Source: Candidatus Latescibacterota bacterium | GTDB lineage: Bacteria > Latescibacterota > UBA2968 > GCA-2709665 | Assembly (NCBI GenBank): GCA_965203805.1 | Contig: OZ241917.1 | Coordinates: 1,280,001-1,344,000 of the forward strand | DNA: 64,000 nucleotides | Direction: 5' to 3' | Shown here: positions 5,050 through 36,504 of the stretch, in pieces | How the letters are laid out: each line of letters starts with the position of its first letter | Position numbering within the stretch: position 1 is the first letter of the stretch | Translations under genes and position numbers: made by a program | The notes under the pieces: model-generated | What the model was told of the DNA's origin: nothing | Seen by the model: the letters and a program-made list of their open reading frames with translations, nothing else | The model's database searches: none

Positions 5050-5053
5050 AGAT

Positions 5054-21160: not shown

Positions 21161-21797
21161 AGTCACAGCCTCACAGTTTCTGTGTATCACAATATACGCA
21201 TTAGCCGGCCGAATACCCGCGACCAGGCGGGCGGCCATCCTGATCGGCGCTGTCGATCAGGTCTCCGTTGGCCAACCCGTCCCACCCTTTTTCTGCCGCC
21301 GTATCGACTGAGTGTGCGGGGAATTCCCGCCTGAGGGGCCTGGGCGTACCGTGATCAAACAGTATCTTCAAGGCTGCTCACCGGCACGGGCGCCTTCAGG
21401 GAGTCTGCCACGTATTGCAGGACGGCTCTCACCTTCCATTCGTCGACGGGCGCGAACCACTCCATGAACTCCTTGATGGTGGCACCGGCCTCCAGGTTCT
21501 CAAACAGGGCCGATACGGGCAGTCTACTGTCGGTGAAGAGCCAGGCACCGCTGACCTTGCCAGGGATTCGCTCCACCCCAGGGCACTTCGACCAATCAAT
21601 CATGTCCTCTCCTCCTCTGCAACTGGGTACTCTTCTGCCGATTCTTCGGCGTCCGCCAGGCGTCTGTGGTCAAACTGTAACCGTGCAGTGGTTCACCACA
21701 ATCGAATTCGTCGCCGTTGCCGGTGGGGCTGCTCGTCGACGGATACGGTGATGTTCTTTATAGTCACAGTCTCACAGTTTCTGTGTGTCACAATATA
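21132..21797. repeat. 65-bp direct repeat (21132-21196 and 21733-21797): antitoxin upstream region plus 5' end; second copy is a relic (ATG>ATA)
   Basis: TCGTCGACGGATACGGTGAT...AGTCACAG.CTCACAGTTTCTGTGT.TCACAATATA in both; TCACAG/CTGTG repeats resemble an RHH operator. Confidence 0.85.
21355..21603 (-). CDS. DUF433 domain protein
   Basis: MIDWSKCPGVERIPGKVSGAWLF..RLPVSALFENLEAGATI.EF.EWF. Confidence 0.9.
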   Translation of the reverse strand: MIDWSKCPGVERIPGKVSGAWLFTDSRLPVSALFENLEAGATIKEFMEWFAPVDEWKVRAVLQYVADSLKAPVPVSSLEDTV

Positions 21798-21959
21798 GCC
21801 AACAATCGGTCGATGGGCAACGACTGCGGCAGCAGTCTGCTGGTCTTTATCGCTCGTTTTCGGCTAATTCTACCAGGTCGCCGCGGTACCTAAAGTCATA
21901 GTTGTGGTGTTCGCGACTAATCCACCGAGAAACCCATCACACCAGCGAACAGATGCGGC

Positions 21960-22562
21960 TCAAGAGTTCCTTCTCCGCATCCGCCTACCCAGGTCGTATT
22001 CACATCCACCCCGCCTATCGAAGGTTACATTCACAAGAAACTCAAGGTTTCGGGGAGTGAGTTTTCCCCAAGGCACGACTGAAACGTGCGCCTTAGGTGC
22101 AAGTAGATTATCAATTATTCGATCGGGCAAATGGGGATATCTCATTTCATATTCGGCGCGGTTGTCGATTGTCCCCCAAGATCCTATATCCGGATGGATT
22201 AGGCGTTTTTCCTCATCACCATGTGCTGCAGTGACGTATGTACATTGGGTGGAAGGCAAGTTGACAACAAGGATTCCAGACTTTTTGTTCCTGACGCCAT
22301 CAAACATGCTTGAGTACAGCTCCCAATCGATGTGTTTCCGCCACTTCGTTTCCGTACCGACGAGAAGAATTGTAACGGTTGAGTCTCGTAGATAATCATC
22401 ACGTATCTTCTCGCGTATTGTCTCATCGCTCAACTCTTCGGAGATGTCCCCGCTATCTACGGATCTATCGATGAAAACGCCAAAGTTCGTACCCATCTCA
22501 ATCAAACCATTCTTATAGGCTTGGTCGTTCTCGTGATGATAGCTGACAAACACTTTATGCAT
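21960..22562 (-). CDS. TIR domain protein (Thoeris ThsB-like / DUF1863)
   Basis: KVFVSYHH..DQ.YK, IRDDYLRDSTVTILLVG.ET..RKHIDWEL with catalytic Glu. Confidence 0.9.
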   Translation of the reverse strand: MHKVFVSYHHENDQAYKNGLIEMGTNFGVFIDRSVDSGDISEELSDETIREKIRDDYLRDSTVTILLVGTETKWRKHIDWELYSSMFDGVRNKKSGILVVNLPSTQCTYVTAAHGDEEKRLIHPDIGSWGTIDNRAEYEMRYPHLPDRIIDNLLAPKAHVSVVPWGKLTPRNLEFLVNVTFDRRGGCEYDLGRRMRRRNS

Positions 22563-23064
22563 AAGTTCGATCCCTTTCTGAGAAAGATTCTATCAAAATC
22601 CGCTGCGCCGTACAGGCCTTGCCTTCATCGGTTTGTGAATTTAGGCAAAAGGCGACTATCCCGATGACACAGATAAGCAGGAAGCCTAAAGGCATCAGCA
22701 GCCCAGTGTATTTCCGCCTAAAAAATCGACGTTTCTCAAATTCCTCCGTCTCGCGACCGAGAAAGTTGTATGGCAGGTCTTTTTCCAAAGTCACAAGTAC
22801 TTTGTGCTTTGCAGCCAGCCGGCCCGTCACGGAATGCAGCGAAAACATCCAGGAGAGGGATACAAGAATCCCCAACAGATACAGTACCCAGATCGTCTCA
22901 GTGCCCGGCGCCAGCTTGTGAAGGAGTACCGATGCTGCGACTATACTGGTGACCATTCCTGAATATAGCTTGTTCAAGCTCTCTCGAAGCGAAGCTACTC
23001 GTTCCGCAAGTTCGGCGTGGAGCTTATACGTCTCAAGCAACAATTTTCTATTGTCACCACTCAT
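22555..23064 (-). CDS. Three-TM membrane protein resembling RipA-family pore-forming proteins
   Basis: LETYKLHAELAERVASLRESLNKLY, two TMs, AKHKVLVTLEKDLP, third TM; overlaps TIR start. Confidence 0.6.
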   Translation of the reverse strand: MSGDNRKLLLETYKLHAELAERVASLRESLNKLYSGMVTSIVAASVLLHKLAPGTETIWVLYLLGILVSLSWMFSLHSVTGRLAAKHKVLVTLEKDLPYNFLGRETEEFEKRRFFRRKYTGLLMPLGFLLICVIGIVAFCLNSQTDEGKACTAQRILIESFSERDRTYA

Positions 23065-23207
23065 GCGGACTCCCTTCGCACACAGATCGGATCCAGTACC
23101 CGCTTGCACGAGAATGTTGCAACCGTGACGTCGACAGCGCATTGCGAGGGTATAACCTACAATCGCAAATCTACGTCAAAGGTCCCACACGAAGCTTTTT
23201 AAACAGC

Positions 23208-23678
23208 CTACAAGACATTCTCGCAAATCCACTCGTCTAATTCGCCCCGATCACGCAACCGCTCCAGAGCTCTCACTACCGTCGGCGAATTGTTAACCCA
23301 GTTATACATGATTCTTGCACGAGGCTTCTGCATGGCGTGTGCCCCGCCAATTTCGTAACCGATCCACATTGAAACCGCGATCGCAGCAGTCACGTTGACC
23401 AAGAAACCGTCACTATCGAGGATCGTGGTCATGATGTAGTCCGGTAATTCGTCTGAGTCCGTGTCGACATTATCGTCCCACTCAGCCATGTAAACCATGA
23501 CCCTGTGCGTGTTTACGATATATTCTGCTTCTCGTTCGGCCTTCCAATCGTCGGTTTTGTGAGACATGAAGACCAACCTGCTTTCAGGCGTCCTTTCGAG
23601 CACCAAATGCTCTGCAAAGACCTGTGAAACGGTTTCAGGGCGATGGAACCTTACCAATTTGTTGAATCTAAGTGCCAT
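23208..23678 (-). CDS. TIR-like domain protein (paralog A)
   Basis: VFMSHKTDD...I.DSDGFLV...SMWIGYEIGGA.AMQKP. Confidence 0.8.
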   Translation of the reverse strand: MALRFNKLVRFHRPETVSQVFAEHLVLERTPESRLVFMSHKTDDWKAEREAEYIVNTHRVMVYMAEWDDNVDTDSDELPDYIMTTILDSDGFLVNVTAAIAVSMWIGYEIGGAHAMQKPRARIMYNWVNNSPTVVRALERLRDRGELDEWICENVL

Positions 23679-23852
23679 AACTTTGTACACCAGAATCGAA
23701 GTTGAAGCACCAGCCCGTCCTGACGAAACGGTTGCTTTGCGCCCTAAGCAGTTCGCTTACTATACGCAATGAAACGTGAAATCGTCAGCATAGTCAGTAA
23801 TATCCAATTGCCAAGAGATGTTCGAGTGCTTGTACTTAGCCACCCGAACGAC

Positions 23853-24323
23853 TTATAGAATATTCTTCAAGATCCAATGGTCTACCTCGTACCGATTGCG
23901 CAACCGCTCCAGAGCATTCACTACAGACGGCAGACCCGCTATCGAGTCGTACATGATCTTAGCACGAGGCTTCTGCATCGCATGTGCCCCACCAATCTCG
24001 TAACCAATCCACATTGAAATCCTGATCGCAGCGATTACATTGACCAGAAATCCGTCACATTTGCGGATGGCATTCATAATGTAATCCGGCAATTCGTCCG
24101 AATCATCCTCAACATTGTCGTCCCATTCGGCCATGTAAACCATCACACCGGGCAAGAGCACGATGCGCCTTGCTTCCCGCTCGGCTTGCCAATCGCCGGT
24201 CTTGTGAGACATGAACACGATTTTATCGGTAGCGGCCTTAGTGCGTACTACCTGTTCGGCCAAATACCGGGTGTCGATTTCAGCGTGATCTCGTCGAACC
24301 AATCTGTTGAATCTAACCGCCAT
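23853..24323 (-). CDS. TIR-like domain protein (paralog B)
   Basis: Same length (156 aa) and motifs as paralog A. Confidence 0.8.
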   Translation of the reverse strand: MAVRFNRLVRRDHAEIDTRYLAEQVVRTKAATDKIVFMSHKTGDWQAEREARRIVLLPGVMVYMAEWDDNVEDDSDELPDYIMNAIRKCDGFLVNVIAAIRISMWIGYEIGGAHAMQKPRAKIMYDSIAGLPSVVNALERLRNRYEVDHWILKNIL

Positions 24324-24738
24324 AAGAATGAACCTCGAATTCGTCGGTGTTGAGCCCGCGATTTTCAAGTTTGCACTGCTGTCCGAAGGTAATGCAGGAT
24401 CTCACCCCAACCGAAGGTCCGTAATTTCCCAAAGTCAGCTCAATTACCCATCACTGTATTGCGTGATCGAAAGTAATCGATCGGTTGTGCGCCGTAATAG
24501 GGATTACTGAAATCAATCCATTACCGGTGGCGAGACATTCGCCATCGAATTTGGGCTGCCCTCCAAGTATTAGGTCAGTTGTAATCGTGTAACTTGGAAA
24601 CAGAACTTACGACAACTCCAAGTTGCGAACATACCCGCCGAAACCATCGGTAGCTTCGCGAAAATTCCAATCTGCGGTGTCGCTGTTGGTCACGCTATCT
24701 CTGTTCCGCATTCAGATCGGGAATTCACCAAATTCGCT

Positions 24739-24967
24739 TCAGGTTCGGATTGGCGTTCTGAGATGGTCAGCTTCGTGTTTCAGTACGACCGGGACCTGCC
24801 ACGGCCTCACTTCGGTGAACCACTCGAGGAACTGACTCAATGGTGGCCCCGCTCTCTCGGTCTTCAAAAAGAGCCACTACCGGCAACTTTTTTTCGGTGA
24901 ACGCAATGGCTCCGCCGATCTTCCTGTCATTTCGTTCGACTGCCAAGAAGTTGCTTCAGTCGGTCAT
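24739..24967 (-). pseudogene. DUF433 pseudogene
   Basis: MTD*SNFLAVERNDRKIGGAIAFTEKKLPVVALFEDRESGATI / QFLEWF..: premature stop and frameshift; homologous to 21355-21603. Confidence 0.8.
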
Positions 24968-26418
24968 ACGGTCATTTCGTCTTCGGCTGCGTACTCTTCT
25001 GCCGATTCCTCGGCGTCGGTGTAGTCGTCTTTGGGAAGCGTGTCGAGTTCCGGAAGTTCGGCCGCCGCTTCGCGCACGTCAAGCTTGCCGGTGACGACAT
25101 CGGCGATCAGGCGGGTGCGGTACTCTTGGATTAAGTCGATTTCTCGTTTTAACCGACCAATCGCATAATCCAGGCTGTTCGTTTTCTCAGAGATTACGTC
25201 AAGTATGGCTGCTTGCACTTCCAGAACTGGAAGAAAAACCGGAAATCTGCGCAGTGTGCTGCTATTGGTGGAGGCGAGGTTCGTCGTCTGCTTTGCTGTT
25301 AATTCGAAATATGTCCGTCCGTGTATCGACCCCATGAGTCCAACAAGAAATTCTGGGCTAAGGAGTCCTCGCTTACAACGCACCGCAAAGATGTGATTCT
25401 GGTGTAAACATCCAGGAATCTCATCTCGCCATACACATCCACGCCCGAGTTTGTCGATATCTCCACCTTCTGTCATCAGAACATCCCCCGTCAACACGGT
25501 GCTCCGATTCGCCTCATTCAGCGGCACACTGATAGACTTGATGTTTGTCAGGTCCAAACATCCTGCCTGAACATTAGCGACGCGTAAGTATGGTCGAGAT
25601 ATTGTTCGCGTACTACTGTAGTCCTTGCCCAACGTTAGACCTGTTTGAACCTGCGCTACATCCTTGAGACGGTGAAGTTGCCAATCCTCCGGCACCTGTC
25701 CTAGCCACTTCACACCTGACGGCTTGTAAGCCGGGTAGGGCTTTCCGGTTCGGACGTCGATCTGGCCTGTGACGGCCTGATGGATGATAGCCTGTTTCTG
25801 CTCCTCCAGCAGCGAAATCAGCCTCTGTTTGGCGCGGATGTAGCGCTGGATGCGCCGGTCGGCGTGGTCGAGGAAGCGGACGATGGCGGTTTGTTCGGCG
25901 AGGGGAGGGACACATGTGTAAATCATCTTGAAGTGTTCAGGACGCAGACTCCACATATCCGACGTAATGCCATAAGACCATCGCTCAGTCTCCTTTGCGA
26001 ATCCGGGCGTCCGGAACAGAAAATGGACGAAGTCAGAATCAACGCCATCGCGTGGACGTTGTACGATGTAGGCCGGACTTACGATGCCTTGGTAATCAGA
26101 AGCTCCGAAGGCGCCCTGCCAGGCTCGCATTTTGTTATATGCTATGTATCCGGGCCGGACCAATTTGTAGGCAGACTTATCCAGGTTCGAACCGTCTTTC
26201 TTTGTGCTGTCCTCCAGAAGCTGATTCTGAAGGATGACTCCCCGTTTGATCGTTACGGAGAGCATCGGTTCCTCTGGATGATCACGTTCCTTCACTTCTT
26301 CAAAGAGTGTGCGATTAGGTAAAACCTCCCAGTGGGACGGAACTTTACCCAACCACTTTACTCCGGAATCCTTCATTTTGGGATACGGCCACAATTCGTT
26401 GGTTTTCGAAAACTGCAT
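24964..26418 (-). CDS. hsdS: Type I restriction-modification specificity subunit
   Basis: Two TRDs, repeated YP..K.SGVKWLG.VP..W, PPLAEQTAIVRFLD, EYRTRLIADVVTGKLDVR. Confidence 0.96.
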   Translation of the reverse strand: MQFSKTNELWPYPKMKDSGVKWLGKVPSHWEVLPNRTLFEEVKERDHPEEPMLSVTIKRGVILQNQLLEDSTKKDGSNLDKSAYKLVRPGYIAYNKMRAWQGAFGASDYQGIVSPAYIVQRPRDGVDSDFVHFLFRTPGFAKETERWSYGITSDMWSLRPEHFKMIYTCVPPLAEQTAIVRFLDHADRRIQRYIRAKQRLISLLEEQKQAIIHQAVTGQIDVRTGKPYPAYKPSGVKWLGQVPEDWQLHRLKDVAQVQTGLTLGKDYSSTRTISRPYLRVANVQAGCLDLTNIKSISVPLNEANRSTVLTGDVLMTEGGDIDKLGRGCVWRDEIPGCLHQNHIFAVRCKRGLLSPEFLVGLMGSIHGRTYFELTAKQTTNLASTNSSTLRRFPVFLPVLEVQAAILDVISEKTNSLDYAIGRLKREIDLIQEYRTRLIADVVTGKLDVREAAAELPELDTLPKDDYTDAEESAEEYAAEDEMTV

Positions 26419-26701: not shown

Positions 26702-27085
26702 CTATCGAGCAGCGATGTCATCCAGCTTTGCGTTGATCGTCTTCCATCTCCATGGGATCGGGTCTTCAAGCGAGGATAGCCCACTATACGGCCTATCCTG
26801 AGCCACGATTTGGATGGTAGGCTTGCTGAGGCTGCGGGCTAACTCCGTTTCGACGATGACGCCGGGAGCGTTGTGCGTGTCTTGACCGATCAGGACGACT
26901 ACTACGTCACACTCTGCGATGGCCTTTTTCGCCTGGTTCTTCCAGTCTTCATCCGGGTACGCCTCATTGAGAGAGCAGTTGTGTACGCGATGTTGGGTAT
27001 GTTCTTTTGCCTGTTCGAAGAAGCTATTCTTGAGGTCGTGGTCTTTATCAAACTCAAAACTCACAAAAATGCTGAGACGCGGCAT
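26702..27085 (-). CDS. Minimal TIR domain protein (ThsB-like / DUF1863)
   Basis: IFVSFEFDKD...I.ECDVVVVLIGQDTHNAPGV.VE.ELA..L.KP. Confidence 0.85.
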   Translation of the reverse strand: MPRLSIFVSFEFDKDHDLKNSFFEQAKEHTQHRVHNCSLNEAYPDEDWKNQAKKAIAECDVVVVLIGQDTHNAPGVIVETELARSLSKPTIQIVAQDRPYSGLSSLEDPIPWRWKTINAKLDDIAAR

Positions 27086-27360: not shown

Positions 27361-27576
27361 TCAGCCGTCGCGACGGTCTGTTGGCCTGTTCTGTGTCGAA
27401 TTGCGAATCCGCGCGGCCATCGCTTCCAGCACGGGGTCGGAATACCGCCTGGAATTGAACCACTCCACCGTTTCCTCTGCTGTCATGTCGGCGGTTTCGG
27501 CAGTAATGCGGGCGCGGGCCTTGCGCATGAACTCGACACAGTCGAAATTCTTCTTGCGGCGGGGCTCTTCAGTCAT
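27361..27576 (-). CDS. Small FDC-motif protein (putative PIN-associated antitoxin)
   Basis: KKNFDCVEFMRKARARITAETADMT; near-duplicate of 30421-30636. Confidence 0.7.
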   Translation of the reverse strand: MTEEPRRKKNFDCVEFMRKARARITAETADMTAEETVEWFNSRRYSDPVLEAMAARIRNSTQNRPTDRRDG

Positions 27577-27726
27577 GGACGATTTCCTCGGGCGCGCAAA
27601 TGTCGATAGCACCGAATCCATTCTGACAATTGACCTCGTTGCAGGCCCTGATGCCATGCCAGTTCACCATCTGTCTGAAGCTCCAGCTTGCGCTGAAAGC
27701 CTCCACTCCCTTCCCGATCTTCATCA

Positions 27727-27963
27727 TCAATCGCCCTCGGCGCCGGATCGTCCGACGTCGCTTGCCCTATCGTCCTGCCAGGGTCGCACAACCCTGGACT
27801 TCGGAATGCGAGCGAAGAATGGATCTTTTCGGACAGCCGCATTGAGCCGCCGACGCCGCTCTTCCGGTGACATCCCCACCAGTTCCGCGTTGATCCTGTC
27901 CCGGACCTCGCGCGTCCACTTTACGCAGTCGAAAGCCCTTGCGCTGCTCTCACTATTCTTCAT
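27727..27963 (-). CDS. Small FDC-motif protein (putative antitoxin)
   Basis: AFDCVKWTREVRDRINAELVGMSPEER; overlaps end of PIN relic. Confidence 0.7.
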   Translation of the reverse strand: MKNSESSARAFDCVKWTREVRDRINAELVGMSPEERRRRLNAAVRKDPFFARIPKSRVVRPWQDDRASDVGRSGAEGD

Positions 27964-28111
27964 TTACATGCTCCGTCGGGCTGCGCATGTCCACCGGTGG
28001 GTATCCCATGCGCCGGTTCACCGCGTTGTACATCCTGATTCGCCACAGGTTCACCATGTGCCTGAAGTTCCAGCCTGTCGCCATCCGTAGCGGTGACGCG
28101 TGCGTATTCAT
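27953..28111 (-). pseudogene. Internally deleted PIN toxin relic
   Basis: WNFRHMVNLWRIRMYNAVNRRMGY matches the PIN C-terminus fused to HsdM (WNFRHMVNWRRNRLYNAVNRQMGY). Confidence 0.8.
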
Positions 28112-29076: not shown

Positions 29077-29612
29077 GCTTTGCGGGTGTGAACATCAACG
29101 GCGTACCTGATGAGACGACGATCTGCAAATTCCGTCACTTTCTGGAGCACCATGGGTTGACGGAAGCGTTGTTTCGGCAAACGAAGCGCTACTTGTCCAG
29201 GCGGGGATTGATCGTGAACGAAGGCACGATCGTGGATGCCACGATCATTCACGCGCCTTCTTCGACGAAGAACAAGGATCGGAAACGGGATCCTGAAATG
29301 GCCAGCACGAAGAAGGGCAACACGTGGCATTTCGGCATGAAGGCGCACGTGGGCGCGGATGTGAAGGGACGGGTGCACAGTGTGGTGACCACCCCCGCTT
29401 CGGTGCATGATTCGCAGGCGATGGATGCCTGTCTGCACGGAAAAGAAAAGACCATCTACGGCGACAAGGCCTATGCGGATCAGACGCGAAAAGAACGGGC
29501 CGAAGCCAACGACGTGGAATGGCGAGTGCTTCGCAAGGCCCGCCGGGGCAAGCGGCTCAACTGCGCGGATGTTTCGTTCAACAAGAAGAGCAATCGCACG
29601 CGCGCACGGGTC

Positions 29613-29648
29613 CCTGCCTGTGCGTGCTGTCTCACGCACGCAGACAGG
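29613..29648. repeat. CCTGCCTG hairpin mini-insertion 3 (36 bp)
   Basis: CCTGCCTGTGCGTGCTGTCTCACGCACGCAGACAGG; removal restores RARVEHPF. Confidence 0.92.
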
Positions 29649-29981
29649 GAACATCCCTTTGGGATCATCAAACACCTGTGGGGCTACCGAAAGGTCAGGT
29701 ATCGCGGTCTGGCGAAGAATACGGCGCATCTGTTCACCTTGTTTGCCTTGGCTAACTTCCATATGGCACGTCAGGAACTGGCTACTACATAGGCACCCGT
29801 GCCTCCAATTCGGACGCTGGCGGCCAAAATGGCCGGCACCGAGCGCATCCGGGGCCGGAATCACCCGTGCAAACCCGAAAGATGACGACCCTCTCAACAT
29901 AAACAGCCTCCGAAACGACCCATAAGTTACAACTTGCTCATTCCCTCTGGTTGATCAGAGGTTCCCTCATCGGTCAAAAAC

Positions 29982-30311
29982 TTAATCGTTGCCATGTTGG
30001 GTCGAGTCTTGGATCTTTTGGGAAATCTTCGAAGAAAACTTCTGACGCAAGGAATCTACAAATGCTCGACTCTCCTCAAGCGATCGGTCAATCTCATTCT
30101 GATGATCGAAATAGTAAGCCAGTGCTGCGTATACATCCGCCAGGGAAATGTCGTAATCACTGGCGATTTCGTCGGCGCTCTTGCCCAGGCGCTCGTGCCA
30201 GATGACGATATTCTCGACGGCAATTCGACGACCGACAATGCGCGGTTTGCCACCTGAAATGCCCGGGGTGATCTCAATATGTTGATTCAGGGTTTCCGTT
30301 GTCATTTCCAT
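29982..30311 (-). CDS. DUF433 domain antitoxin
   Basis: IEITPGISGGKPRIVGRRIAV...ADVYAALAYY; upstream of DUF5615. Confidence 0.93.
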   Translation of the reverse strand: MEMTTETLNQHIEITPGISGGKPRIVGRRIAVENIVIWHERLGKSADEIASDYDISLADVYAALAYYFDHQNEIDRSLEESRAFVDSLRQKFSSKISQKIQDSTQHGND

Positions 30312-30420: not shown

Positions 30421-30636
30421 TCAGCCGTCGGGACTGTCTGTTGCCCTGTTCTCATTCGATTTGCGTATTCGCGCGGCCATTGCTTCCAGCACAGGGTCGG
30501 AATACCGCCTGGAATTGAACCACTCTATCCGTTCGTCAGCAGTCATATCGGCGGTTTCGGCCGTAATGCGGGCGCGGGCCTGGCGCATGAATTTGACACA
30601 GTCGAAATTCTTCTTGTGGCGGGGGCTTTCAGACAT
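30421..30636 (-). CDS. Small FDC-motif protein (putative antitoxin)
   Basis: KKNFDCVKFMRQARARITAETADMT...YSDPVLEAMAARIR. Confidence 0.7.
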   Translation of the reverse strand: MSESPRHKKNFDCVKFMRQARARITAETADMTADERIEWFNSRRYSDPVLEAMAARIRKSNENRATDSPDG

Positions 30637-30900
30637 GGACGATTTTCTCATGGGCTCGATTGTCGATCGTGGCGTATCCATTGACGCCATTGCAGAGCAC
30701 GATGCGCATGAATCCTTCTATGCGGGAAAAGGCTTTAGGTCGGGGATCATGGAGTTACCCATAGAGAGTATCTCGTACTTCGCGATTGAATAAACCAAAA
30801 AGACCCGCAACGTCGGCAATGATTCAGTCAAGCGTCCCGACTCGCTCGTCCCGATGCCTCGGTACGGTCTCGCCGTGCCGGCTGCTTGTCAAGCCATTGA

Positions 30901-31104
30901 TCAGGGTTCATTCTCTTTGTCTTTTTCCGATTCGCGCAATGGCGCCGCCAGTCGTTCCAGAACAGGATCTTCATAGCGATACGTGCGATAGTACTGGATT
31001 CGCTCTGCAGGGCTCATGCCGGCTGTTTCTGCGGCAATCCTCGCACGAACCTCACGCACAAAGCGGATGCAGTCGAACCTCTCGGTTGCGGTATCATTTG
31101 TCAT
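30901..31104 (-). CDS. Small FDC-motif protein (putative antitoxin of the HsdM-fused PIN)
   Basis: RFDCIRFVREVRARIAAETAGMSPAER; overlaps hsdM-PIN stop. Confidence 0.7.
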   Translation of the reverse strand: MTNDTATERFDCIRFVREVRARIAAETAGMSPAERIQYYRTYRYEDPVLERLAAPLRESEKDKENEP

Positions 31105-33538
31105 AGCTGATCGCCTCCGGGGATAGGACGTTCAATTCCTCGTACCCCATTTGCCGGTTGACTGCGTTGTACAACCGGTTTCGTCGCCAGTTCACCATGT
31201 GCCTGAAATTCCAGCTTGCCAAAACGTCGGCCTCAGCCAGGGTTGCCAGGGCGATATGCTCCGCGTCGGCGCGGTTCGCAAGGCCGAGAGCCCCGGAACC
31301 AATGTATGCGTCCGCAAGCCGTTCTGCCTCATCTGTGAGAAAGAGCATCTCTTTGTTCGCAGCGGGAATCTGATCGATCACATTGCGCACGCTTTCCGGT
31401 GCCCCCGCCAGTTCCCTGAGAATGACTTCTGAATAAACGAGGATAGCATCTCCGTGCTTGAACTTATCAAACAACTCCATGGATGCCTCACGGACCTCAT
31501 CGTCCAGACATCCGCCGATCACCGAGGTGTCCACGTAGATGCGCGGCTTGCCGTACACAGCCGGCGGTTCCCGCACCATCGGCAGGTCGCCGAGTAACCC
31601 CTCGGTCTCTTTCTCCAGCGCTCTGATATCCACCCCGATCTCCTCCAACGTCCGCATCGGCTGGGGTTTGTAGAAGTACCGCGTGAAGCTGATTTCATAG
31701 CCGATCCTGACACTGTCGGGTCGGTACCAGGCGTCAGGCGCGTAGGGCAGGACCTCCCGCTGCAGGAACGCTTCGATGCCGCCCTCCTCTTGCAGCGGAA
31801 TCTGCTCTGTGTCGCGCAGGTCGGTGTCCGGTTCGTACTCGACCACGGCAGTCTTGCCGTTGACGGTAGCCTCAAAACGTCCACGTAGCGGGTCGGCTTC
31901 CGTGCCCTTTCTGTGGATCTTCTTGATAACGGGCGGCGCGGCTTCGCTACGCTCGCCGGTTTCCTTCATCTTCTTGATTTCGGCGGCCTTATAGGCACGG
32001 TTTGGGTCAATCCCTTCGATTCGAAGCGTGCGTTCGACGGCCACCTTCCAGTAGCCGAAGGCGGCGTTGTCGAAGATCTTGCTCTGCTCGCTCTCCTCGA
32101 AGGCCAGGAACGCGTCGCAGATCCGCCGGATGTCCTCTTCGCCAAGTTCGCAGTTTTTCTTGCCCAGGTTCTTGCGCAACGGCTTGTACCACTCGGTGGC
32201 ATCGATCAACTGCACCTTGCCCCGACGATGCTCCGGTTTTCGGTTGGTGATCACCCACACGTAGGTGGCGATGCCGGTATTGTAGAACATGTTGAGCGGC
32301 AGCGCGACGATCGCCTCCAGCCAGTCGTTTTCGATGATCCAGCGGCGGATGTTGCTCTCGCCCTGGCCGGCGTCGCCGGTGAACAGGGAACTGCCGTTGT
32401 GTACCTCGGCGATGTGACTGCCGCCCTCCTTCATCTTGGATAGTTTATTGGCGAGGAAGAGCATCTGCCCGTCGCTGGACCGGGTAACGAGTGAATATTC
32501 GGGATCGTCGGCGTGCTCAATCACGAAGCGCGGGTCCCGCATTTCCTTTTTGCCACCCATGCGCTCCAGATCGGTCTTCCAGCTCTTCCCATAGGGCGGA
32601 TTGGAGAGCATGAAGTCGAACTCGCGGGACGGGAAGGCGTCGTTTGCCAGGGTGGAATGCTCCGGGCCACCTACGATGTTATCGGCCGCGTCTCCTTCAC
32701 CCTTCAGCAGCAGGTCGGCCTTGCAGATGGCATAGGTCTCAGCATTGATCTCCTGGCCATACAGATGAGTGGAGACGTCTTTGTCGCGCTCGGCGGCGAG
32801 TTGCTGGAGCACGTCTTCTGCCACGGTCAACATCCCACCCGTGCCGCATGCGCCGTCGTAGATCAGGTACGTGCTGGATGTAATCTCGTCAGCGACGGGC
32901 AGAAAGACCAGCTTCGCCATCAACGTGACCGCGTCGCGCGGGGTCCAGTGCTCGCCCGCTTCTTCGTTGTTCTCCTCGTTGAAGCGCCGGATCAATTCCT
33001 CGAAGATCGTGCCCATGCCATGGTTGTCCAGGCCGGCGTGCCTGACCGTTCCGTCGGCGTTGTGCACCGGGTCCGGGCTCAGGTTGATGTCCGGCGACGT
33101 CAGCTTTTCGATCAGCGTGCCGAGGGCATCGGCCCTGGAAAGCCGCTGGATCTGGTTACGAAACTCGAAGTTTTCAAGGATGTCCTGGACGCTGGGCGAG
33201 AACCCGTCGAGCCAGGCCCTGAAATCGGCCTCGAGCTGCTGGCGATTGGCGCGGGCGCGCAGGTCGCGAAGGGTGAATTTCGACGTATTGTAGAAGGCCT
33301 GTCCTGCGACTTGCCGCAGGGTCGCCTCCTGCTCGACAACGCCGGCCTTGTCAAGGTTGGCCTTCATGTCCAAAACCGCCTGCTTGCTGTCTTCCAGCAC
33401 CGCGTCCAGCCGGCGCAGTACGGTCATCGGCAGAATCACGTCACGATACTTTCCGCGCACGTACAGATCGCGCAGAACGTCGTCGGCAATTACCCAGATG
33501 TAGTTGGCAATCCAGTTCAGGTCTGCGTTGGTTGTCAT
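31094..33538 (-). CDS. hsdM: Type I R-M methyltransferase subunit with C-terminal PIN domain
   Basis: EAGEHWTPR, YDGACGTGGML, NPPYG (N6-MTase); after IGYEISFTRYFY it continues in frame into IYVDTSVIGG...DAEHIALA...SWNFRHMVN (PIN). Confidence 0.95.
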   Translation of the reverse strand: MTTNADLNWIANYIWVIADDVLRDLYVRGKYRDVILPMTVLRRLDAVLEDSKQAVLDMKANLDKAGVVEQEATLRQVAGQAFYNTSKFTLRDLRARANRQQLEADFRAWLDGFSPSVQDILENFEFRNQIQRLSRADALGTLIEKLTSPDINLSPDPVHNADGTVRHAGLDNHGMGTIFEELIRRFNEENNEEAGEHWTPRDAVTLMAKLVFLPVADEITSSTYLIYDGACGTGGMLTVAEDVLQQLAAERDKDVSTHLYGQEINAETYAICKADLLLKGEGDAADNIVGGPEHSTLANDAFPSREFDFMLSNPPYGKSWKTDLERMGGKKEMRDPRFVIEHADDPEYSLVTRSSDGQMLFLANKLSKMKEGGSHIAEVHNGSSLFTGDAGQGESNIRRWIIENDWLEAIVALPLNMFYNTGIATYVWVITNRKPEHRRGKVQLIDATEWYKPLRKNLGKKNCELGEEDIRRICDAFLAFEESEQSKIFDNAAFGYWKVAVERTLRIEGIDPNRAYKAAEIKKMKETGERSEAAPPVIKKIHRKGTEADPLRGRFEATVNGKTAVVEYEPDTDLRDTEQIPLQEEGGIEAFLQREVLPYAPDAWYRPDSVRIGYEISFTRYFYKPQPMRTLEEIGVDIRALEKETEGLLGDLPMVREPPAVYGKPRIYVDTSVIGGCLDDEVREASMELFDKFKHGDAILVYSEVILRELAGAPESVRNVIDQIPAANKEMLFLTDEAERLADAYIGSGALGLANRADAEHIALATLAEADVLASWNFRHMVNWRRNRLYNAVNRQMGYEELNVLSPEAISYDK

Positions 33539-33777
33539 CGGAATTCCTTGCAGGTGCGCCCGGCCGGTCGCCCCTGCGGGTGATCAAGGCACCCGCTTCG
33601 CCTTTGCTCTAAAGAGATAAAGGCGAATCACCCGTGGCGAGTCGCCTTCCTCGAAGATGGCTTCCTCTACCCTCACCCCCGGTTCCCTACTCCCCCTGCG
33701 GACGAGAACTGTTCCCCCTCGATGAATCTGGAGGGGCGGAACGGGTGCAGATCAGGCTTCCCGGCCGTGGACCGGCT

Positions 33778-34575
33778 TCATCGCAAACTCTGAGTCTCTC
33801 CGCTGATAAAAGCGATAAACTCGTCCGGCCTCGACCAGCGAGACACCATAGACAGCGGCTCAACCAACCGAAAATCCTCATCTGCCCAGACGTCGGCAGT
33901 ATCATCGAACAAGGAAACGAAGGTCAGTGCCTCGGGCCCTGATGCAAGGTGATTCAGATCGTGCCAGGCGGCCAACACGTGCTCGGAAACTCTATGTGCT
34001 GCAGCACGATTCCCGGTGCTCAACACCTGTACAAGCGAACTCCTGAACTCCGCCCGGACGTGGAAATCGACCGTCCAGCCGCGCCCGGATCGGCCGGCAA
34101 GCCTTTCGGAACGCTCGTAACCCAGCTCCCGCTCTGAGAGGATATCCGCAACTTCGTCCGTAACGGATTGCACGGACTGTGTTCGAAACGTGAACCACAA
34201 ATCGGATACCCGAAGCGCCGCCTGAGCTACACGCGTTACAACATTCGCCAACTGATCACCAGGTCGACACCGGGCTTGAAGCATGCCGCGATAGAACTCT
34301 ATCCCATGGGTCAAACACGCATCTTCTATGAGCCGTCTCTGCTTCGGGGAACGACGAAGAGTCGACGACTGCATTCGGAGCCAACCGGTGGTCTCCGCAA
34401 GGTCGGTTATCGTCAACGAATTGTTGGAGACCTTACAGAAGAGGTCGATATTGTCGCCATCCGGATAGAGATATGGCGTACGAATTCGGTGAAATTCACC
34501 TTGTTCCGAGCACGTGAACAAGACGCCGATCTCCCGTTCCAATTTCTGACACAGATCCTTGCTGTCCATTACCAC
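33778..34575 (-). CDS. DUF1828/DUF1829 domain protein
   Basis: IRTPYLYPDGDNIDLF...ITDLAET; GRSGRGWTVDF nuclease-like C-terminus. Confidence 0.75.
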   Translation of the reverse strand: MVMDSKDLCQKLEREIGVLFTCSEQGEFHRIRTPYLYPDGDNIDLFCKVSNNSLTITDLAETTGWLRMQSSTLRRSPKQRRLIEDACLTHGIEFYRGMLQARCRPGDQLANVVTRVAQAALRVSDLWFTFRTQSVQSVTDEVADILSERELGYERSERLAGRSGRGWTVDFHVRAEFRSSLVQVLSTGNRAAAHRVSEHVLAAWHDLNHLASGPEALTFVSLFDDTADVWADEDFRLVEPLSMVSRWSRPDEFIAFISGETQSLR

Positions 34576-35024
34576 AGTTTTCCTTGAATAGCAGGCGGTC
34601 TACTCATCACGCCATCGTGTCGAATGCCTGCTTCAATGCAGAACTCCTGCCAAACCGACGCGGGATCCGAAACAAGCGCTTTAACGTCGTGCGGTACATA
34701 TGCTTCTTTATCACTGTAACGTTCTGACCACCTATGCTTGTGCTTTTCCCCAACCTGTTCACATTGCGGATTGTGATGATCCTTTCCGAGGTCAAGACCA
34801 TAGATGCGGCCCACGGTCGTCAGAATTAGCGCGTAGGTCAGCGTACCTGCGAGCGAATTGAAACGTCCCTTGACGAACAGCGGCCAACCACTCTCCGACG
34901 TGACGTTGACGTGGAATTCAAATGCAGGGGAGTGATCCTCGTCCTCAATCCAGTTAACGTCACCATCAATCCGCTTCGTGTCGTCATTCAGGATTGAGGT
35001 AAATTCGCCATCGGACAAGGGCAT
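34569..35024 (-). CDS. DUF6978-like protein
   Basis: LDL...HHNP...V.EKHKHRW.E...KEAY; coupled to DUF1828 gene. Confidence 0.65.
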   Translation of the reverse strand: MPLSDGEFTSILNDDTKRIDGDVNWIEDEDHSPAFEFHVNVTSESGWPLFVKGRFNSLAGTLTYALILTTVGRIYGLDLGKDHHNPQCEQVGEKHKHRWSERYSDKEAYVPHDVKALVSDPASVWQEFCIEAGIRHDGVMSRPPAIQGKLW

Positions 35025-35328
35025 TTCGGTACTCCGGATGTTCAGCTCATGGTTTTACCGGAGCAGCACAGTTGCACAACTGCTCCATTATCCAGTACGA
35101 GCATTTCGGAACACCTGCGGCAGTTTTCTCAATATACGAAATTTGGTGTCTAATGGAGTAGCGATTTCGGAATTTGACGCGACGGTCGGGCACAAATGGG
35201 GCTCGCACCTATGGTTCCCAGGAACACTCCAACCGCGTTTACCCTTCCTCTAACGAAACAAAGGCGAATCGCCCGTTGGGCGCCGCCATTGATCGCCTCG
35301 CCTACTCCAGAGTCAAGTCCCTCTTCTC

Positions 35329-36504
35329 TCACCCCCGGTTCCCCCCTCCCCATGCGGACGAGAACTGTTCCCCCTCGATGAATCTGGAGGGGCGGAACGG
35401 GTGCAGATCGAACGCCGGCGTCCGGCCGAGAATCACATCGCTCAGCGAGTCGGCGATGGGCGGCCCCAGCTTGAACCCATGCCCGCTCCCGCCGAAAAAG
35501 GCATAGTATCCCTCCAGCCCCGGTTCGGGGCCCACCAGCGGATGCCAGTCGTCGGTAATCGTATAGACCGACGCCCACCCCTTCAGGTATTCGCACTGAC
35601 GGAATGCCGGCACCCGTTCGAAGGTCCCGTTCTCAATGCGGCGGCGCGTGGGCTCATCCAGGTCCGGATCGTACGCGTCGACGTCCATCGGCTCCACCTC
35701 TTTGGGAAAACTCAGGCCGGCCAGCAGGCCGTTGTCGCCGTCGGGACGGAAGTAGACCCTCAGGTTGGGATCGGAAACGACCGGAAGCGGCCCGTATCCC
35801 TCCGGCAGGCGCAAGACCAGATCGCTCTCCCGGCTCCATCGCAGCGAATAATTCAGCCCCGCGGACAGCCCAATCCTGCGCCCCCAGGGACCCGCGGCGT
35901 TGATCACCAGACCGGTCCGGATTTCTCCGGCCTCGGTTTCAACGCCGGTCACCCGGTTGCCGGACAGGCGGATCCGCGTTGCCCCCACCCCCTCGTAACA
36001 CACCAGACCCCATTCCTTCGCCCGCGTCACCAGGTTCCGGACCGTCTTGACCGGGTCCGCGTACCCGGAAGCAGGTTCGTAGATGCCCGCGACGATCCCG
36101 TCCGTGTTCACACAGGGAATCAGCTCCCCGATCTCGTCCCTATCCACCTCCACGGCGCCGGTGCCGTTCCGCTGCTCCGCCTCGAGGACCGCCCGTCCCG
36201 CCGCGGCGGTATGCTCTCCCAGAAGACAGGTATATCCCGTATTGCGAAAGTCGCAGTCACCTCCCAGCGCCTCCTCCGCGTTCGCAAACATCTCCAGCGC
36301 CGCCGCGGACATCCGAATGGTCAGGTCATTCGAGTAGAACGTACGGATCACAGCGGCCGAATGCCCCGTACTCACGGCGGCCAGCGACCGTTTTTCCAGG
36401 AGCACGACGTCGCCGAGGCCCTTCTTCGCCAGAAAATGGGCCACGCTGGCCCCCATGATGCCTCCGCCGATCACCACGGCGTCTGCTGTCTTTACCATTC
36501 GCAT
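35329..36504 (-). CDS. FAD-dependent oxidoreductase (DAO / sarcosine oxidase beta family)
   Basis: VIGGGIMG, NAAGPW, SGHGFKLGP. Confidence 0.92.
   Translation of the reverse strand: MRMVKTADAVVIGGGIMGASVAHFLAKKGLGDVVLLEKRSLAAVSTGHSAAVIRTFYSNDLTIRMSAAALEMFANAEEALGGDCDFRNTGYTCLLGEHTAAAGRAVLEAEQRNGTGAVEVDRDEIGELIPCVNTDGIVAGIYEPASGYADPVKTVRNLVTRAKEWGLVCYEGVGATRIRLSGNRVTGVETEAGEIRTGLVINAAGPWGRRIGLSAGLNYSLRWSRESDLVLRLPEGYGPLPVVSDPNLRVYFRPDGDNGLLAGLSFPKEVEPMDVDAYDPDLDEPTRRRIENGTFERVPAFRQCEYLKGWASVYTITDDWHPLVGPEPGLEGYYAFFGGSGHGFKLGPPIADSLSDVILGRTPAFDLHPFRPSRFIEGEQFSSAWGGGNRG

Follow-up and report, generated by a model that had tools for sequence, protein, structure and literature searches.

The closest described parallels to the locus reported here are the polymorphic toxin loci, which include the C-terminal displacement arrays of rhs genes (Jackson et al. 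2009, PMC2935791), orphan rhs modules (Koskiniemi et al. 2014, PMC3967940), and T6SS effector-immunity arrays (Kirchberger et al. 2017, PMC5361080). As far as these accounts set them out, the published models are homologous recombination through circular intermediates for rhs (PMC2935791) and homology-facilitated illegitimate recombination for T6SS (PMC5361080), and the analogy with integrons is explicit in the polymorphic-toxin literature. An integron-like route of growth, suggested in the initial annotation of our locus, had already been published for T6SS arrays and rhs, circular intermediates included. In those loci, as here, a conserved core ends in a hypervariable C-terminal toxin tip with a sharp boundary and a cognate small gene directly downstream; further downstream lie orphans, each with part of the core, a tip and the small gene, and orphan types of one strain are active in others; within a genome the core fragments are similar to its core, and there is no integrase. 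However, the scaffold here is the cytoplasmic DNA methyltransferase of a restriction system rather than an exported toxin, and there is no delivery apparatus; the tip is VapC/PIN, so that the small gene would be an antitoxin and not an immunity protein against neighbouring cells; and further scars at this locus involve hsdS, an RHH gene and a housekeeping gene on its flank. Conserved gene ends as recombination anchors have already been published for other loci; what is new is that the swappable toxin tips sit on HsdM.

A second parallel is the insertion of restriction-modification (RM) genes with long target duplication (Furuta et al. 2010, PMC2853133, citing Nobusato et al. 2000). In the cases given there, long imperfect direct repeats flank the insert (46-423 bp, compared with about 170, 115-1360 and 200 nt here), the repeats align to a single-copy target in a genome without the insert, mobility genes are not linked, and type I systems are included. 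There the insert is made up of RM genes; in contrast, the RM operon here is the recipient, the inserts are toxin-antitoxin or defence genes, and the repeat copies may come from different allele lineages.

Homology-facilitated illegitimate recombination needs one homologous anchor, one illegitimate joint and no element-encoded enzyme (as described in PMC3240628), and two of the scars discussed below (slot 3 and the extra unit of G001) fit this description. The process was defined experimentally in transformable bacteria, whereas here it is known from sequence scars, without donor sequences. It is reportedly treated by de Vries and Wackernagel (2002), Prudhomme et al. (2002), and Meier and Wackernagel (2003). 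Defence genes also occur inside type I RM operons, as described for TgvAB in Vibrio cholerae VPI-2 (PMC11411939) and by Payne et al. (2024, bioRxiv 10.1101/2024.01.29.577857), where PrrC is named. As at our locus, independent defence genes lie between hsdM, hsdS and hsdR, and PDC-M24, found here, is a candidate system from the same work. Unlike the present analysis, these papers cover content and function; in the available text of Payne et al. neither "recombination" nor "hotspot" occurs, so the entry route of the embedded genes is unaddressed there. The scars described below bear on how such genes enter type I RM operons.

Here we analyse a type I RM island in a window of 64,000 nucleotides (the whole stretch of DNA examined) from contig OZ241917.1. 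This genome, G000, is assembled as one contig of 5.87 Mb, and 14 congeners (G001-G014) were compared with it at the same locus. The island is bordered by an oxidoreductase gene (DAO) and rhaA; its framework is as follows.

35329..36504, minus strand: FAD-dependent oxidoreductase of the DAO family (Pfam PF01266, E 3.6e-58), a conserved chromosomal gene at one island border
26702..27085, minus strand: TIR-like gene upstream of hsdS (Pfam ThsB_TIR, E 1.1e-5)
24964..26418, minus strand: hsdS specificity subunit (Pfam Methylase_S; PADLOC Specificity_I, E 3.8e-100)
17389..20391, minus strand: hsdR restriction subunit (Pfam; PADLOC REase_I), the final gene of the island
15063..16352, plus strand: rhaA, the opposite island border

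DAO orthologues are found in all 14 congeners (86-96% amino acid identity). The DAO-rhaA site is empty in two of them (G005 and G010), and the other 12 carry mosaic island DNA with differing cargo: Mrr, GmrSD, HNH, HEPN/MNT, HicAB, AbiU2 and AAA ATPases. The initial annotation had pointed to relatives as the place to look for empty and alternative cassettes, and both occur, together with un-duplicated or looped-out states for each of the three repeat pairs described next (pair 1 in G003, G007 and G014; pair 2 in G007; pair 3 in G013, where the hsdS-DUF433 junction is un-split).

Self-blastn of positions 15000-38000 recovered all three same-orientation repeat pairs that had been annotated. Pair 1 (33664-33753 and 35320-35409) is identical at 85/90 positions (E 3.4e-34) and extends to 33601-33646 and 35242-35287 (78%); pair 2 (28145-28259 and 31596-31710) is 86% identical over 115 positions (E 4.2e-33), with further homologous blocks at 27323-27622 and 30383-30682 (84%, E 1.8e-88) and at 28001-28077 and 31142-31218 (82%); pair 3 (21454-21653 and 24817-25017) is 68% identical over 206 columns (E 3.2e-9) and contains a 27-nt hsdS tail with 26/27 identical positions. 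A fourth repeat (21719-21797 and 21118-21196; 86%, E 4.5e-20) holds an RHH promoter and the first 40 or so codons, and is a stranded 5' end. Each of the three pairs is part of a longer duplication that crosses a gene junction: the last 82 nt of DAO with about 87 nt of spacer in pair 1, the HsdM tail with a further homologous block in pair 2, and the hsdS tail with the first 150 nt or so of a DUF433 gene in pair 3. The annotated pattern, a stranded 3' end of the preceding gene, holds in that gene ends are displaced, but all three duplications cross junctions and one stranded end is a 5' end. The cargo between the repeats does consist of defence or toxin-antitoxin genes. The repeats are unique in the genome, except that another type I locus has a paralogous hsdM tail.

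The hsdM gene, with pair 2, is the clearest case of such scars.

31580..33538, minus strand: HsdM methyltransferase body, aa 1-652 of an 814-aa fusion (Pfam HsdM_N and N6_Mtase; PADLOC MTase_I, E 5e-236)
31094..31579, minus strand: VapC/PIN-like toxin tip of class A, aa 653-814, fused in frame to HsdM
30904..31104, minus strand: sm_A, a small gene (67 aa) whose start overlaps the stop of hsdM::PIN and which is predicted to encode the cognate antitoxin
30421..30690, minus strand: class B orphan small gene, which follows a very short remnant of PIN_B
28136..28259, minus strand: repeat 2, stranded HsdM tail (aa about 609-652), 86% identical to 31596-31710 and ending in a tail of the unfused type
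27361..28077, minus strand: orphan array, made up of the next four features
28001..28077, minus strand: PIN_C remnant
27727..27963, minus strand: sm_C, 91% identical to the small gene of the active tip in G008
27614..27690, minus strand: PIN_B remnant
27361..27657, minus strand: sm_B

Positions 31596-31710 had been read as the hsdM 3' end; instead, the reading frame continues to 31094 as a PIN domain. The class A tip is modelled by AlphaFold2 with a pLDDT of 88, matches VapC and FitB toxins in Foldseek (TMt up to 0.69), and gives a PIN_3 match that lies under the family cut-off (E 0.007); its invariant residues are D17, E56, D105 and D118. Among nine fused alleles the HsdM body is 87-98% identical at the amino acid level, whereas the tips, which form four classes, are 55-62% identical between classes—the switch from body to tip identity is sharp at about aa 650. 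A small gene of matching class directly follows each tip, and small-gene class co-varies with PIN class; the small genes are putative antitoxins of the matching tips.

Further downstream, arrays hold intact orphan small genes, each after a PIN remnant of the last 40 or so aa; eight of 10 remnants begin at aa 119-131, in the conserved stretch SWNFRHMVNW, and those at 27361..28077 retain only aa 121-160 or thereabouts. The orphan classes of G000 are active elsewhere: class B as the tips of G004, G006, G011 and G014, and class C as the tip of G008. The class B orphan at 30421..30690 is 79% identical to the small gene after the active PIN_B tip in G004, compared with 43% to its own sm_A. The stranded HsdM block is likewise closer to another allele than to its own: positions 28257-27658 are collinear over 600 nt (91%) with G007 sequence that covers the end of its functional hsdM and the genes that follow, versus just 82-86% identity to the functional copy in G000. 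In a tree the stranded tail groups with the G003 and G007 alleles, with weak support (84/76, 141 columns), and it has the same upstream context in five congeners. Finally, G001 carries an extra hsdM-tail-PIN-small unit that is 79% identical to its resident unit; the latter shares 95.6% identity with the unit of G000 and 94.9% with that of G012, which argues that the extra unit is a recent import and not an in-situ duplication.

We regard the hsdM locus as a case of the C-terminal displacement known from Rhs, CDI and T6SS loci, and consider it probable, though by no means certain, that the scars across the island were left by the cell's homologous recombination with the DNA of related islands, without an integrase. 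One side of an incoming block would pair in register with a conserved stretch, for example the HsdM body, and its opposite side would join out of register or illegitimately; the new piece would settle beside the core gene, and the resident piece, carrying a fragment of the conserved gene, would be pushed downstream. The stranded fragment would then likely act as a portable homology arm, by which cargo could be moved, converted or looped out through RecA-type recombination alone. We infer the pathway, the substrate (linear, as in homology-facilitated illegitimate recombination, or circular, of Campbell type) and the direction of each event from the scars. The idea that conserved gene ends serve as anchors is broadly right, in that conserved coding stretches look like anchors; the polarity, however, would often be the reverse of that first proposed, with an incoming upstream block (a new HsdM tip or hsdS allele) displacing resident DNA downstream as the better fit. 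Nor can at least two of the three scars, which are old and common to several species, be taken to show that the island is growing at present. Some points count against recombination with related islands. For microhomology at the distal junctions, where it had been anticipated, the sole hint is a shared GATCT at pair 1, provided that the resident flank was of the G004/G007 type. Additionally, pairs 2 and 3 are old, and the first event could have been an ancient tandem duplication followed by divergence.

Pair 1 brackets a two-gene cassette at the DAO end.

35242..35409, minus strand: repeat 1, in-gene copy, with the last 82 nt of DAO and spacer of the DAO-hsdM type
33778..35024, minus strand: cargo 1, candidate defence system PDC-M24, two genes (Pfam and PADLOC; PDC-M24A, E 2.7e-66, and PDC-M24B, E 1.6e-102)
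34569..35024, minus strand: DUF6978 gene of PDC-M24 (Pfam)
33778..34575, minus strand: DUF1828 gene of PDC-M24 (Pfam)
33601..33753, minus strand: repeat 1, stranded copy, with the DAO tail and spacer continuing into the native hsdM upstream region

G003, G007 and G014 have an un-duplicated DAO-spacer-hsdM junction, to which positions 33753-33539 align collinearly (80-83%, 215 nt). Compared with one another, the stranded DAO copies of G000 and G001 share 79% identity, yet both contain patches that match the in-gene copy of the same genome: 57 identical nt at the start in G000, and 50 of the final 51 nt in G001. These patches indicate that the repeats recombine, and the 94% identity of pair 1 reflects gene conversion rather than youth. 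The same gene pair is found in G004, between hsdR and rhaA, and in G008, where a decayed RM island lies on one side of it and a stranded end of DAO on the other. The islands of G000 and G012 are about as alike as their flanks (about 90-93% at the nucleotide level), which suggests that the cassette, and not the RM block, is the newcomer at pair 1.

A newcomer cassette fits displacement and insertion with target duplication equally well. In the latter, cargo would enter an intact junction through, for example, widely staggered breaks or template switching during repair, with both repeat copies made from resident sequence. The order of core gene, duplicated junction, cargo, duplicated junction and next gene is indeed seen in all three pairs, un-duplicated targets exist in relatives, and such insertions are documented for all RM types, with 46-423 bp repeats and no mobility genes, in the cases reported by Furuta et al. 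(PMC2853133). The right end of the PDC-M24 cassette also lies at the same position, within 2 nt, in the G000/G001, G008 and G004/G007 contexts; this may point to a cassette with a defined end or to a hot spot at this place, and counts against our preferred reading, as random illegitimate joining predicts otherwise. However, copying resident sequence cannot yield the mixture of allele lineages in pair 2 (where the stranded copy is of the G003/G007 type), the 79% unit of G001, or orphan small genes of different classes that are active elsewhere, and we consider target duplication an unlikely general account.

Slightly less probable again is tandem duplication in situ, by unequal crossing-over of sister chromosomes followed by decay, deletion and gene conversion, with no horizontal input. 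The features around pair 3 are as follows.

24817..25017, minus strand: repeat 3, proximal copy, with the hsdS tail and a broken DUF433 5' part (24817-24963)
21454..21653, minus strand: repeat 3, distal copy, with a stranded hsdS tail (about 21604-21653) and the 5' part of an intact DUF433 gene
21355..21603, minus strand: intact DUF433 gene
21960..24368, minus strand: cargo 3 (Pfam and PADLOC), GC 0.48-0.50
23853..24368 and 23208..23690, minus strand: tandem TIR-like paralogues of cargo 3 (Pfam/PADLOC)
22555..23142, minus strand: 8xMP membrane protein of cargo 3 (Pfam/PADLOC)
21960..22562, minus strand: ThsB-type TIR protein of cargo 3 (Pfam/PADLOC)
21719..21829, minus strand: stranded 5' end of an RHH antitoxin gene, a promoter-like region and about 40 codons
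20819..21238, minus strand: RHH antitoxin (Pfam), paired with the PIN toxin
20400..20813, minus strand: PIN toxin (Pfam), paired with the RHH antitoxin

The two TIR-like paralogues repeat with a 645-nt period at 76% identity, PIN-small and RHH-DUF433 units are arrayed repeatedly in many congeners, the sequences after both HsdM tails of G000 are homologous, and one novel joint per event would be enough. However, the orphans are of different toxin-antitoxin classes, whose small genes are 36-46% identical from one class to another, the divergence of the G001 units speaks against simple duplication, which had been named as a possible refutation, and pair 2 would need a second copy of the DUF433-DUF5615 gene pair listed below; none is present. 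The GC content of cargo 3 is foreign, and relatives within the family are lacking: tblastn of the 14 congener loci gave no matches, and the 8xMP protein is missing from all 14 congener genomes, its best match in the phylum sample being 52% identical. The slot-3 scar is better read under recombination with related islands—a donor-type RHH 5' fragment set against a resident hsdS tail, which a single illegitimate joint would give exactly. A leader of about 50 nt of hsdS tail precedes DUF433 genes in G001, G004, G006, G007, G011 and G012, and the stranded RHH 5' end, which matches RHH aa 2-40 in tblastn, is shared with G012 and G001.

Attachment sites classically lie in gene 3' ends. A site-specific recombinase, either supplied in trans or lost since, with integron-like or tandem integrative islands at the DAO 3' end and gene ends or a palindrome as attachment sites, would account for the recurrence of stranded DAO tails (G000/G001, G008 and G013) and for the constant cassette end; relatives' islands also have, at their module borders, a perfectly conserved 28-nt palindrome, which could be a recombination site and is a further point against our preferred reading. 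We nevertheless think such a recombinase highly improbable. The DAO breakpoints vary by event (aa about 365 in G000/G001, aa about 320 in G008, only the last 18 nt or so in G013), and the junctions have no visible common core sequence; the repeat junctions of G000 lack the palindrome, of which a single degenerate copy lies at 33548-33579, and elsewhere it falls between ordinary or housekeeping genes. The window, island included, has no tyrosine recombinase, the genome has three (PF00589, the closest 47 kb off) and no serine recombinase (PF00239), and the 133 ORFs scanned, out of 177 from 12 related islands, gave no match to either family and one to an rve transposase. ComEC and DprA homologues are present in the genome, which is not evidence of competence.

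Strain-chimeric misassembly is the least credible source of the repeats: the relatives are labelled metagenome-assembled genomes and CheckM-type contamination is 9%, but the genome is a single contig, the repeats (68-94% identical) are diverged beyond collapse or mis-joining, and the arrangements recur in independent congener assemblies, that of pair 1 in G001 (92.6% over 1949 nt), that of pair 2 in 5/14 congeners and that of pair 3 in six.

The reported lack of any recombinase gene thus stands for tyrosine and serine enzymes; there is, however, one transposase in the interval, and its element parts a gene pair.

29982..30311, minus strand: DUF433 gene, partner of the DUF5615 gene (Pfam, E 3.1e-18)
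28656..29965, plus strand: IS5-family insertion sequence (NCBIfam transpos_IS5_4, E 4.7e-70)
28351..28629, minus strand: DUF5615 (Mut7-C/PIN-like) gene (Pfam, E 7.3e-15)

The element has four further copies elsewhere in the genome (99.8-100% identity), and its flanks are contiguous in G001; the two genes that it separates adjoin in G001, G008 and G009. It lies at none of the repeat junctions and is a recent insertion, unrelated to the repeats.

Across the 14 congeners, the locus can be read as a record of gene capture—the ends of conserved genes serve repeatedly as anchors, older modules are shifted downstream, and there is no element-encoded recombinase. The island of type I restriction-modification (RM) genes and cargo is bounded by the DAO oxidoreductase gene on one side and by rhaA on the other; its genes all lie on the minus strand, and the window holds no tRNA gene. 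Starting at DAO, the order of the island is as follows:

First half, minus strand: DAO; PDC-M24A and PDC-M24B, a candidate defence pair (PADLOC E 2.7e-66 and 1.6e-102); stranded DAO tail; hsdM fused to a PIN-like tip (hsdM::PIN); small genes; DUF433, IS5 element (28656–29965, plus strand), DUF5615
Middle, minus strand: stranded HsdM tail with PIN remnants and small genes; TIR-like gene; hsdS; broken DUF433
Last part, minus strand: three TIR-like genes and the 8xMP membrane protein; stranded RHH 5′ end; stranded hsdS tail with intact DUF433; RHH-PIN; hsdR

The initial annotation had described the 3′ ends of DAO, hsdM, and hsdS as each recurring around a block of cargo (here pairs 1, 2, and 3). 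Self-blastn of positions 15000–38000 bears this out: the three pairs are direct repeats far beyond chance, and the 27-nt hsdS tail lies inside the pair 3 repeat, with 26 of 27 positions identical. The copies are real, but they are not gene ends alone—all of the pairs sit in longer duplications that span a gene junction, and there is a fourth repeat, in which a 5′ end is stranded. The repeats are:

33664–33753 and 35320–35409: pair 1, 85/90 identical, E 3.4e-34; the duplication comprises the DAO tail and ~87 nt of spacer
33601–33646 and 35242–35287: continuation of pair 1, 78%
28145–28259 and 31596–31710: pair 2, 86% of 115, E 4.2e-33; the duplication comprises the HsdM tail and ~1 kb of the genes after it
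27323–27622 and 30383–30682: the genes after the HsdM tail in pair 2, 84%, E 1.8e-88
21454–21653 and 24817–25017: pair 3, 68% over 206 columns, E 3.2e-9; the duplication comprises the hsdS tail and the 5′ part of the DUF433 gene
21719–21797 and 21118–21196: fourth repeat, RHH promoter and first ~40 codons, 86%, E 4.5e-20

The genome (G000; 5.87 Mb, single contig) has no further copies of the repeats other than a paralogous hsdM tail at its second type I locus. The IS5-family element has a two-ORF transposase and four other copies in the genome at 99.8–100% identity; it interrupts a DUF433/DUF5615 pair left whole in the congeners G001, G008, and G009, and is a later simple insertion that leaves the repeats unexplained. 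The duplicated RHH 5′ region (21790–21830 and 21190–21215) holds a sigma-70-like promoter seen by eye (TTGCCC, 17 nt, TATATT) as well as an inverted repeat, TGTGA..ACAGAAACTGTGAG, so that the stranded RHH copy may now drive the downstream DUF433 gene.

Pair 2 is best read as a displacement array. A 161-aa domain with a VapC/PIN fold (predicted structure, pLDDT 88) is joined in frame to HsdM, and Foldseek matches this domain to VapC and FitB toxins; four acidic residues are invariant in this tip, and its match to PIN_3 (E 0.007) falls below the cut-off. Among nine fused alleles the HsdM bodies are 87–98% identical at the amino acid level, and at aa ~650 they switch to tips of four classes (A to D) with 55–62% identity between classes. 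Each tip is followed by a small gene (sm) of 67–78 aa and of matching class, with a start that overlaps the stop codon of the fusion; small-gene class follows tip class in 9/9 fused alleles and in G000. Position, overlap, and co-variation together lead us to predict that the small genes encode antitoxins.

Downstream of the active unit, small genes remain as intact orphans; they commonly follow a PIN remnant consisting of the last ~40 aa, and 8/10 remnants begin at aa 119–131, within the conserved stretch SWNFRHMVNW. The array in G000 reads PIN_A-sm_A, sm_B, the DUF433-IS5-DUF5615 block, HsdM tail-PIN_C remnant-sm_C, and PIN_B remnant-sm_B, and its orphan classes are active elsewhere: class B forms the tips of G004, G006, G011, and G014, and class C the tip of G008. 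The stranded HsdM block of G000 bears the tail of the unfused G003/G007 alleles; over 600 nt it runs collinear, at 91%, with G007 through the functional gene end and the region after it, compared with 82–86% for its own functional copy. G007 looks like either a post-recombination state, between two HsdM tails, or a pre-insertion state. Behind DUF5615 the stranded tail has the same upstream context in G000 and 5/14 congeners, which points to one old event.

G001 contains one unit more than G000: an active class D tip and its small gene, followed by HsdM(595-652)-PIN_A-sm_A. This displaced unit shares 95.6% identity with G000 and 94.9% with G012, but only 79% with the new G001 unit; the G001 hsdM body is about equally distant (87–91%) from all other alleles, and G001 DAO and PDC-M24 are ~95–98% identical to G000. 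We read the extra unit as imported from a lineage that the sample does not contain, an event that left the resident gene end stranded, rather than as a duplication in situ. Simple tandem duplication would explain some of the local arrays; however, it fails on the class differences between units and on the G001 event. That the new stranded HsdM tail of G001 begins at the same codon (~594) as the old one was considered and dropped, as in the alignment the old copy reaches further upstream, to aa 543–586 by tblastn.

At pair 1, the stranded DAO tail and spacer continue unbroken into the start of hsdM, a layout collinear (215 nt, 80–83%) with the DAO-spacer-hsdM junction that is native to G003, G007, and G014; the insert (33754–35241) carries PDC-M24. 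The same genes are found between hsdR and rhaA in G004. In G008 they are flanked on one side by an RM island with heavy deletions and on the other by a second stranded DAO tail with a different breakpoint (aa ~320), after which comes another, complete RM island; the two G008 islands are 84–97% identical. In G013, hsdM is preceded by the last ~18 nt of DAO and the spacer, which follow another gene. On its right side the PDC-M24 cassette ends (33754–33780) at a base that is constant to within 2 nt, ~24 nt past the DUF1828 stop codon, across three contexts—the stranded DAO tail, a 187-nt filler, and the rhaA flank—with equivalent joints in the extracted loci L013 (G001), L015 (G008), L022 (G004), and L021 (G007). 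We rejected a placement of the pair 1 joint exactly at the start of rhaA-flank homology; alignment of the rhaA flank puts the beginning of the conserved flank ~35 nt further on.

The PDC-M24 cassette is likely a newcomer at this slot, because the islands of G000 and G012 are about as similar as their flanks. The stranded DAO copies of G000 and G001 occupy the same position and are 79% identical to each other, and each matches, in patches, the in-gene copy of its own genome. The repeats are thus subject to gene conversion, and the age of pair 1 cannot be read from its 94% identity. Dating events by repeat divergence was discarded as invalid for the same reason—conversion homogenises the copies.

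For pair 3, G013 provides an un-split junction in which DUF433 directly follows hsdS (150 nt, 73% against pair 3). In G012 and G001, hsdS is followed by a palindrome, an RHH 5′ fragment, an ~50-nt hsdS tail, and DUF433-RHH-PIN. On the simplest reading, the pair 3 scar would be one illegitimate joint between a donor segment (a new hsdS allele and the start of its neighbour RHH) and the resident hsdS tail. An hsdS-tail leader stands ahead of DUF433 genes in six congeners; hence this scar is old too. The TIR/8xMP block that forms cargo 3 occurs in G000 alone among these genomes (0/14 congeners) and has a low GC content (0.48–0.50); no close relative that could be its donor was found, and in a phylum sample 8/167 other genomes match, with a best identity of 52%. 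Within this G000-specific cargo, tandem TIR-like paralogues (23208–23690 and 23853–24368; 62% aa, 76% nt) repeat with a 645-nt period. Together with the adjacent 8xMP protein and a ThsB-type TIR, these paralogues may form a Thoeris-like module with a membrane effector.

The relatives were compared by taking 20 kb downstream of each DAO orthologue (14/14 genus genomes) and mapping the window proteins onto it; since each species is represented by one genome, most events seen in this way are old. The comparison of the locus across relatives, as first proposed, yielded both empty sites and differing cargo: the DAO-rhaA site is empty in 2/14 congeners (G005 and G010), and the other 12 contain island DNA, with remnants only in G002. 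Cargo in the relatives varies among Mrr, GmrSD, HNH, HEPN/MNT, HicAB, AbiU2, and AAA ATPases. The early claim that the island lacks a recombinase also stands, the IS5 transposase apart—the genome has three PF00589 (tyrosine recombinase) matches, none in the window and the nearest at 1362715, and no serine recombinase match. From the relatives' islands 177 ORFs were called and 133 scanned (44 that overlapped genes already named by tblastn were skipped); the scanned ORFs gave 0 matches to tyrosine or serine recombinase families and a single match to an rve transposase, in G001. A site-specific recombination system is disfavoured, as neither an enzyme nor a common joint was found.

The data favour recombination between related islands by host functions. 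Host recombination would join two such islands through one crossover in register and another that is out of register or illegitimate; new pieces would land beside the core gene, and old ones would shift downstream. The scar architecture fits homology-facilitated illegitimate recombination, with one homologous anchor and one illegitimate joint—a process proposed for T6SS immunity arrays by Kirchberger et al. 2017 (PMC5361080), who also draw the integron analogy. A 5-nt GATCT shared at one joint is at most a hint of microhomology. ComEC and DprA homologues are present, which permits DNA uptake and is no evidence of it.

Several known systems resemble the island in part. In the insertions of RM genes reported by Furuta et al. 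2010 (PMC2853133) for all RM types, the target duplications are long and variable, and mobility genes are absent. Here too, direct repeats of >30 bp around each insert align with single-copy sequence in an insert-free genome (G003/G007/G014 for pair 1, G007 for pair 2, and G013 for pair 3, at the lengths and identities reported for each), no mobility gene is linked, and the inserts are <20 kb (~1.5, 2.1 (+1.3-kb IS), and 3.2 kb). The difference is in content; the search of Furuta et al. was for inserts with R and M gene homologues, whereas the inserts here are PDC-M24, PIN/small genes with DUF433/DUF5615, and TIR/8xMP.

Displaced rhs tips carry partial cores, for which Jackson et al. 2009 (PMC2935791) proposed homologous recombination with circular intermediates, and Koskiniemi et al. 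2014 (PMC3967940) showed that a main rhs gene recombines with an orphan. As in rhs, CDI, and T6SS arrays, there is a conserved core with an exchangeable, hypervariable C-terminal toxin tip and a sharp boundary, and the downstream orphans (partial core, tip, and putative protective gene) are of types active in other genomes. Those toxins are exported or delivered; in contrast, the carrier here is HsdM, a cytoplasmic methyltransferase. In the fusion protein Pfam recognises no domain for export or delivery, and none of the named island genes is a secretion gene. Integrons have an IntI tyrosine recombinase beside the array and attC-type imperfect palindromes at cassette boundaries, whereas we found no such recombinase in the window or in the scanned ORFs of relatives, and no inverted repeat shared by the G000 junctions.

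The HsdM::VapC fusion is widespread. The tip matches 171 protein clusters (E ≤ 1e-5), mostly 810–896 aa long and named only N-6 DNA methylase in their sources, and 453 loci in many phyla, with Pseudomonadales genomes among them, encode a tip relative. We surveyed 4 kb downstream of the best 80 of the 453 loci, 69 of which come from other taxa; among these 69, an HsdM body lies upstream in 56 and at least one small gene is found in 62, with more than one small gene in 12, a second PIN match in 3, and a stranded HsdM tail in 1 within that 4 kb. A search of the open-access literature by title and abstract returned no description of polymorphic tips on HsdM; what is new here is the scaffold, an HsdM with a polymorphic VapC tip and a co-varying small gene.

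Embedded genes in type I operons are established (PMC11411939; bioRxiv 10.1101/2024.01.29.577857), and defence genes embedded in restriction and BREX-type operons have been catalogued by the thousand; in the text of the catalogue by Payne et al. 2024 (bioRxiv 10.1101/2024.01.29.577857), the entry route of such genes is not discussed and the word 'recombination' is used 0 times. We tentatively suggest, as a possibility somewhat short of probable, that type I restriction operons are integrase-free cassette platforms with a swappable HsdM VapC tip and antitoxin; new tips from relatives would push out their predecessors, with arrays of retained antitoxins left behind, and stranded conserved ends would serve as portable homology arms by which any captured gene could pass from one related operon to another by RecA alone. 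Displacement would then follow the course known from polymorphic toxin loci, with an intracellular immune enzyme as its setting. If true, this would account for the entry of embedded defence genes into multi-gene immune systems, and the retained antitoxins might guard against the toxin tips of incoming restriction islands. If the tip is an RNase restrained by the small protein, an abortive-infection toxin would be covalently coupled to the restriction complex, and the orphan arrays would be a new case of retained immunity.

In the second type I RM locus of the genome (L031, G000:C1:2946000-2965999), hsdM is unfused (67% aa), hsdS is directly preceded by a ThsB-like TIR gene, and ~10 kb of embedded cargo lies ahead of hsdR; self-blastn finds no stranded gene ends there, the sole repeat being 59 nt at locus positions 14349/16255. 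In a genome of another genus (G020), a lone frameshifted DAO 3′ fragment (G020:C1:2566028-2566420, L122 10028-10421; aa 260–390, 61–72%) was dropped as a trace of the island; this genome is without a full-length DAO orthologue, and no island genes lie near the fragment. At the island edge, between hsdR and a small ORF beside rhaA, a ~190-nt dispersed repeat (16950–17145) has >80 genome copies at 72–87% identity and looks MITE-like.

A 28-nt perfect palindrome (GTAGGGGCGACCGGCCGGTCGCCCCTAC) is specific to the genus, with 4–24 copies in each of 14/14 congeners and in 0/8 genomes of the neighbouring family, and is kept without mismatch across species. In the islands of relatives it stands at module borders (after hsdS, before hsdM). 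It was rejected as a cassette site, as in G000 it lies between ordinary genes and is absent from the repeat junctions; it could be a terminator, a REP-like element, or a recombination hot spot. Its copies in G000 are:

G000:C1 2547525, 4163102, 4168277, 4171012, 5088019, 5287540: perfect copies
33548–33579 in the window: single degenerate copy

Finally, a ~200-nt region upstream of hsdM recurs within the islands of relatives, ahead of internal modules, at 73–76% identity; it may be a reused promoter region that provides extra homology for recombination. Counted from the DAO end, it is found at:

G013 (L018): 1556–1773
G004 (L022): 4979–5196
G006 (L023): 4885–5102
G008 (L015): 2123–2340
G009 (L017): 6178–6378
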